The notes under the pieces are model-generated. The model saw only the letters and a list, made by a program, of their open reading frames with translations, had not been told where the DNA came from and searched no databases. A stretch of DNA of 64,000 nt from Escherichia coli (GTDB taxonomy: Bacteria; Pseudomonadota; Gammaproteobacteria; Enterobacterales; Enterobacteriaceae), in assembly GCF_045037415.1 (NCBI RefSeq), contig NZ_CP173438.1. One strand, written 5' to 3'. Each line of letters opens with the position of its first letter. The first letter of the stretch is position 1. The position numbers were made by a program, and so were the translations under genes. This document shows, piece after piece, positions 24,897-24,924 of the stretch.

Positions 24897-24924
24897 ATGT
24901 CATCGACACTAGTGTCGATGACAT
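24897..24924. promoter_or_regulatory. 28-bp perfect palindrome upstream of hydN, putative FhlA UAS
   Basis: atgtcatcgacactagtgtcgatgacat is its own reverse complement; contains TGTCGA/TCGACA half-sites shared with the hyp-hyc UAS; followed by cgttttt. Confidence 0.5.

Follow-up and report, generated by a model that had tools for sequence, protein, structure and literature searches.

What is the function of a 28-bp perfect palindrome that lies just upstream of hydN in Escherichia coli? We considered this question in a stretch of 64,000 nucleotides (called the window below), which is 100% identical in this region to E. coli chromosomes such as that of strain 98194 and which is reversed in orientation relative to K-12. 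The hypA gene is on the minus strand (start at 15349), hycA-I are on the plus strand from 15561, and hydN, the first gene of hydN-hypF, occupies 25032-25559 on the plus strand (175 amino acids, according to the RefSeq annotation of identical DNA and to the ORF list) and is followed by hypF. In K-12, ascBFG is found between hycI and hydN; in the window and in 720 of the 5426 complete E. coli genomes, a small islet is present instead (23445-24884 here). It contains an ORF of 61 amino acids without a Pfam match, an HTH_3/HigA-like gene (23587-24075) and, on the minus strand, an ORF with a weak match to DUF4259 (24167-24604). Homology with K-12 resumes at about 24878, at what is in K-12 the stop codon of ascG (CGATAAA), and this is the right junction of the islet; 14 bp separate the ascG stop from the palindrome in K-12. 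The same right junction is found in E. albertii and in clone D i14, and relatives have an intact HigB toxin gene annotated there.

Exact self-complementarity had been claimed for positions 24897-24924 and we could confirm it: the sequence, ATGTCATCGACACTAGTGTCGATGACAT, is its own reverse complement, and the symmetry breaks at the next pair, 24896/24925. This is the longest perfect palindrome of the window, the runners-up measuring 14 bp. The analytic expectation for a palindrome of at least 28 bp in 64 kb is 2.4e-4; none of 3000 shuffled sequences reached 28 bp (the median of the longest palindrome being 16) and, in a smaller earlier set, one of 100 did. Each E. coli genome has one such site, the two places returned by BLAST being the two strands of the same site. 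A REP sequence or the end of a mobile element was ruled out, as the palindrome is single-copy in each of the 555 genomes that carry it and, in 1.42 Mb of flanking DNA, no locus has the motif more than once.

Using HydN as a query and retaining one genome per species, we collected 80 loci and compared 81 upstream regions, from Escherichia, Salmonella, Citrobacter, Klebsiella, Raoultella, Enterobacter, Kluyvera, Kosakonia, Lelliottia, Trabulsiella, Cedecea and other genera. The motif GTCATCG[AT]CA-N4-TG[AT]CGATGAC is present exactly in 77 of these 81 regions and the other four contain recognisable variants. In the window it consists of a left arm, TGTCATCGACA (24898-24908, plus strand), in which the A at 24906 is a derived base, a variable 4-bp centre, CTAG (24909-24912), and a right arm, TGTCGATGACA (24913-24923, plus strand). 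Information content is about 2 bits per position in both arms, which equals that of the TGG in the -24 promoter element, and about 0 in the flanks. The centre is always 4 bp long and has 18 different sequences among 77 species, CTAG being the commonest (22/77). The degenerate positions of the two arms, 24906 and 24915, form a pair for which 52 species have T/A, 21 have T/T and 4 have A/T; it is thus non-complementary in 27% of species, a figure easier to reconcile with a degenerate contact by a protein than with an obligatory base pair. Adjoining the palindrome is an auxiliary upstream half-site, TGTCATCAC (24888-24896, plus strand), a direct repeat of the left arm, for which the cross-species consensus is GTCGTCA at 24889-24895 and the information content reaches 1.0-2.0 bits at 24890-24895 in the 81 aligned regions.

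All 76 matches to the strict motif in the 1.42 Mb of flanking DNA are at the position upstream of hydN, and nowhere else. The neighbour on the other side varies: ascG in K-12, an ascG orthologue in Klebsiella (76% identity), hycI in S. diarizonae and the islet here. Since the element is kept whatever gene adjoins it, it belongs to the promoter of hydN and not to the upstream gene. An AscG operator was ruled out on the same ground, the element being kept in genomes without ascG upstream.

A sigma-54 element had been expected downstream and described as only an imperfect match at 24979-24993. The sequence TGGCATGATTTGTGA is indeed present there, with GA instead of GC at -12, yet it is a real promoter: CTGGCATGATTTGTGAA is the sigma-54 site given for K-12 hydN by ChIP-seq (PMC4591121), and the window sequence is identical to it. 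The promoter, TGGCATGATTTGTGAA, extends over 24979-24994 on the plus strand, with the -24 GG at 24980-24981 and a predicted start at about 25005. Its Salmonella counterpart, TGGCACGATTCGTGTATA, was positive by ChIP-chip and the operon there is sigma-54 dependent (PMC3844500). It is from this literature that we take the occupancy of the promoter by sigma-54. Across the species compared, the columns TGG and T..TG.AT are invariant. In Escherichia, Salmonella, Citrobacter and Enterobacter, the -12 element (24988-24995) reads TGAAT or TGTAT; Klebsiella, Raoultella, Kluyvera and Pseudocitrobacter have the canonical TGCAT.

The centre of the palindrome (24910.5) lies 69.5 bp upstream of the -24 GG; taking 24981 as G(-24), it is at about -95 relative to the predicted start, in the range of roughly 70-150 bp upstream of a sigma-54 promoter where an FhlA upstream activating sequence (UAS) is expected. 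The distance from centre to GG is 58.5-61.5 bp in 30 species and 68.5-71.5 bp in 50, with none in between; two spacing classes that differ by one helical turn indicate a face-of-helix constraint on an activator. Between palindrome and promoter is an IHF-like site, TAACAGTAAATTAAAA (24961-24976, plus strand), of which the columns C24964, A24965, T24972, A24973 and A24974 are each found in 95-100% of species. The block reads TAACAGTAAATTA here and ATCAA-N4-TTA in several genera including Enterobacter and Kluyvera, and it resembles, on direct reading, a block upstream of the hyc promoter. About 29 bp are common to the hydN promoter (TTAAATAACAGTAAATTAAAAACTGGCAT, 24955-24984) and the hyc promoter (TTTAATAACAATGAATTAAAAGTTGGCAC, 15483-15514), and this common block, made of the IHF-like site and the -24 element, suggests a shared promoter architecture or origin.

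Which activator could use such a site? The original prediction was FhlA, on the ground that hydN-hypF is a known operon of the FhlA regulon and that the half-sites TGTCGA and TCGACA of the palindrome recur in the hypA-hycA intergenic region. These half-sites are indeed present there, TGTCGA at 15422 and 15431 and TCGACA at 15446. As a definition of the site these hexamers are less apt, for each contains the variable position of its arm, and the consensus of other genera is TCGTCA/TGACGA. The plain hexamer TCGWCA/TGWCGA has 109 matches in the window and is too common to be informative alone; only clusters of it and the 9-mer TGTCGATGA, contained in the right arm, are informative. This 9-mer occurs 8 times in the window, for 0.45 expected from dinucleotide shuffling. 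Four of the eight occurrences are the two hydN arms, a cluster between hyc and hyp (15422) and a cluster between hycA and hycB (16073). The other four, at 7199, 22797, 37844 and 62057, are apparently in coding sequence, and codon-usage bias (GTC GAT GA) possibly contributes to the excess over 0.45.

Both clusters are of FhlA type. The hyc-hyp intergenic one, TGTCGATGATGTCGAAATGACACGTCGACACGGCGACGAAAT (15422-15465), is situated at about -113 to -70, counted from the start predicted for hyc, and its core, GATGACGAAATGACA[CT]GTCGTCA, is found in most of 9 other genomes. The hycA-hycB intergenic one, TGTCGATGAGTGTCGAAAATGACATTTCATCGGCATGTTTTCGTCAAAAATGACA (16073-16127), combines words of the hyc-hyp UAS and of the hydN arms and is kept, in part or whole, in 9 other genomes; following older literature, it may be the UAS that serves the hyp promoter. 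The core of the hyc clusters, TGACGAAATGACA, is the hydN arm TGACGATGACA with AA added or, in degenerate form, the hydN arm TGWCGA-TGACA is the hyc element TGWCGA-AA-TGACA minus 2 bp. Upstream of fdhF, K-12 has CGTCA-AAAC-TGACG, with the CGTCA-N4-TGACG core that is also found in the hydN consensus across species. An idealised FhlA consensus, CATTTCGTACGAAATG, is attributed to Leonhartsberger 2000 in PMC4987338. The arms give no ungapped match to this 16-mer and fit it only with a gap of 2 bp in each half (CAT--CGT / ACG--ATG). The sequences of the palindrome, the hyc UAS and the fdhF UAS, searched literally in the accessible papers, gave no match, and the 16-mer consensus was met there only in secondary citations. 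By sequence, the membership of the element among FhlA sites is therefore suggestive and not strict.

The dependence of hydN-hypF on FhlA and formate is taken from published work: it is stated in PMC11841067, PMC3844500 and PMC4987338, all of which cite Maier et al. 1996, and FhlA is the only activator that these papers report for the hydN sigma-54 promoter. We consider, with a probability of roughly 0.8, that the palindrome is the FhlA enhancer (UAS) of the sigma-54-dependent hydN-hypF promoter. The original prediction is in this respect supported, by the position at about -95, the near-invariant arms, the phased spacing, the IHF-like site and the words common with the hyc-hyp and hycA-hycB clusters. 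The palindrome itself, its conservation, its phasing, its promoter context and its word-level likeness to the hyc sites are direct observations of this study. From them we infer FhlA as the probable binder, together with the role of IHF and the stoichiometry that follow. FhlA activated by formate would bind the two 11-bp arms (TGTCATCGWCA and TGWCGATGACA, with 4 variable bp between them) through its C-terminal helix-turn-helix, probably as dimers and with the aid of the third half-site upstream, and would assemble into the active oligomer on the palindrome. A bend of IHF type at about 24961-24976 would then bring it to the sigma-54 RNA polymerase at 24979-24994, and ATP hydrolysis by FhlA would open the hydN promoter.

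Comparison with known systems shows likenesses and differences. Like the FhlA UASs of the E. coli formate regulon (hyc, hyp, fdhF), the hydN element belongs to a formate-regulon operon, is about 95 bp upstream of a -24/-12 promoter and is made of multiple inverted or direct half-sites built from the words TGWCGA, TGACA and TCGWCA, the 9-mer being present in both hyc-region clusters; as at hyc, an IHF-like site separates enhancer and promoter. By contrast, hydN has a compact 11-N4-11 inverted repeat where hyc has a tandem or everted layout, and its arms, when set against the FhlA consensus, are without the AA/TT dinucleotide (TGACGA-TGACA in place of TGACGAAATGACA). That the arrangement of half-sites differs from the hyc and fdhF sites counts against FhlA. 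Enhancers of other bacterial enhancer-binding proteins (NtrC at glnAp2, NorR at the triple GT-N7-AC sites of norV, GlrR at the TGTC-N10-GACA sites of glmY/glmZ) also have dyad-symmetric sites with an extra half-site, about 60-110 bp upstream of a sigma-54 promoter, with helical phasing and an IHF-assisted loop; however, their recognition sequences and spacings differ and no consensus of theirs fits the palindrome.

These differences leave some room for another regulator, such as the FhlA paralogue HyfR, or a dimeric repressor that tunes the expression of hydN or of its upstream neighbour. Many dimeric helix-turn-helix proteins typically bind palindromes with an 11-N4-11 layout, and the arms match the published FhlA consensus only with gaps. 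We nevertheless regard another regulator as very unlikely, given that FhlA is the sole activator reported in the papers cited above, that the 9-mer and the TGWCGA/TGACA words are common specifically with the two hyc-region clusters and that the CGTCA-N4-TGACG core is common with fdhF. As for particular candidates, AscG is contradicted by the persistence of the element without ascG upstream, and the spacing patterns of GlrR (TGTC-N10-GACA) and NorR (GT-N7-AC), as given in PMC4987338, do not fit, so that sites for both were ruled out. Inspection by eye against their consensus sequences found no FNR, CRP or LexA box.

A putative FhlA enhancer at hydN comes as no surprise in a regulon that has been known since the 1990s. 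The hydN-hypF operon encodes a ferredoxin-like protein that partners formate dehydrogenase H, together with the carbamoyltransferase required for maturing all [NiFe] hydrogenases, and its control by formate and FhlA is textbook E. coli physiology; for this reason the identification of the enhancer adds little conceptually. What it does provide is a site defined precisely enough to be tested, by its 11-N4-11 arms, its third half-site, the IHF-like site and the 10-bp phasing, and an indication that FhlA-type sites may tolerate different spacings of their half-sites. In addition, the natural alleles of the W pair (T/T, T/A and A/T) could be used to dissect recognition by FhlA.

A palindrome in DNA is also a potential hairpin in RNA, and it had been proposed that this one could insulate hydN from the upstream islet as a terminator. 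More generally, the element might be mainly an RNA hairpin, either an intrinsic terminator or a 3'-end stabiliser for upstream transcripts (ascG, hycI or islet), that protects hydN from read-through. The predicted hairpin has 12 pairs and a 4-nt loop (-19.6 kcal/mol, z = -3.0) and, with the T5 run at 24927-24931 on the plus strand, 2 nt past the palindrome, it resembles an intrinsic terminator; a simple scan flags 24897-24924 with the tail CGTTTTTCCT as terminator-like. It begins 14 nt past the ascG stop in K-12 and about 12 nt past the stop of the ascG orthologue in Klebsiella. In the window, however, the nearest upstream gene on the plus strand ends at 24075, some 820 bp away, the minus-strand ORF at 24167-24604 intervenes, and there is another terminator-like hairpin at 24130-24151. 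The placement at the 3' end of a co-directional unit thus holds in K-12-type genomes and fails here, and the insulation of hydN from the islet appears weak in this strain.

The comparison between species speaks in the same sense. A T-run of at least 5 comes after the stem in 11 of 77 species only, and it is not maintained outside Escherichia and Salmonella. Between genera whose flanks have fully diverged, the 11-bp arms keep the same sequence and show no compensatory change, an invariance that a stem alone does not need, and the inner W pair is, as described, often non-complementary. A terminator, moreover, has no use for a phased distance from the hydN promoter. Compared with Rho-independent terminators, the E. 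coli element has in common a stable hairpin with a T5 tract, just past the ascG stop in K-12-type genomes; it differs by a rather AT-rich stem (only 5 of the 12 pairs are G-C), by the 2-nt spacer, by a short T-tract that is absent in most genera and by a stem sequence that is invariant and not covarying. An Rfam scan of 24000-25600 identified no known RNA family at the palindrome, the only match being a viral pseudoknot elsewhere at chance level (E = 0.28). We consider a role mainly as an RNA hairpin to be quite unlikely; a secondary role as ascG terminator in K-12-type genomes is plausible, and a terminator role would possibly be, at most, secondary and specific to E. coli.

The positions just outside the arms (24897/24924 and 24896/24925) covary symmetrically across genera. 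Among 66 distinct sequences, they form strict Watson-Crick pairs in 70% (24897/24924) and 48% (24896/24925) of cases, with CG, AT and GC types, and pairing drops to chance beyond 24896/24925; the covariation score exceeds those of all 500 column shuffles, a score that is inflated by relatedness. Of the 15 stem pairs considered, seven are constant; the inner variable pair fails to pair in 21 of the 66 sequences, and covariation is confined to the outer two flanking pairs. This extension of the stem favours a hairpin and counts against FhlA, since base-specific recognition by a protein does not predict symmetric covariation of the flanks. It could result either from weak selection on a stem or from hairpin-templated (template-switch) mutation beside a conserved inverted repeat. 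The two functions might also be combined, the DNA acting as FhlA enhancer of hydN and the RNA as 3'-end hairpin of the upstream gene (ascG in most genera), with selection or hairpin-templated mutation keeping the flanks symmetric; we hold such a dual role to be unlikely on the whole. If it were true, the base change described below, which is carried by a lineage that contains ST131, would measurably alter formate-regulon output or read-through into hydN-hypF.

It remains to consider the perfection of the palindrome, which had been found striking. The palindrome is by far the longest of the window. Its perfection is not conserved. The counterpart in K-12, ATGTCATCGtCACTAGTGTCGATGACAT, has one mismatch, a T at 24906. 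Using a 36-bp megablast query, for which a match is possible only with 28 contiguous identical bases, we found the perfect form in 555 of the 5426 complete E. coli genomes (about 10%, ST131 included), once per genome; the other 90% or so, K-12 included, have an imperfect form. T is the base at 24906 in 95% of species and in most E. coli. Because it is also found in K-12, in E. albertii and in clone D i14 (which carries the same islet and which we take to be of phylogroup B2), the perfect palindrome is, from these alignments, a derived state that arose by a single T-to-A change at 24906. FhlA has reportedly been studied in K-12, that is, with an element that has the mismatch.

The T-to-A change turns the left arm into a copy of the right arm. 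Such arm-copying is a known signature of "quasipalindrome correction" by template switching, a neutral mutational route. The change at 24906 may have arisen in this way or may be an ordinary point mutation. The perfect symmetry is a by-product of one T-to-A change in a quasi-palindrome and not a selected feature. One could suppose, on the contrary, that symmetry was selected in this lineage because it lets a cruciform extrude or makes cooperative binding tighter. A successful group of 555 genomes, ST131 among them, is fixed for the perfect allele, and symmetric W pairs (T/A and A/T) exceed the asymmetric T/T across genera (56 versus 21). Selection for symmetry we find most improbable, as the element is imperfect in about 90% of E. 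coli, among them K-12 and clone D i14 with its islet, the centre is asymmetric in most species, and a single change sufficed for perfection, the classic outcome of quasipalindrome correction. The allele also turns the central GTCA...TGAC into GACA...TGTC; should the main contacts be made with the inner bases, the A24906 allele would deviate at both halves, which counts against FhlA. The centre CTAG, finally, sits inside an ACTAGT SpeI site, and CTAG is the most under-represented tetranucleotide in E. coli.
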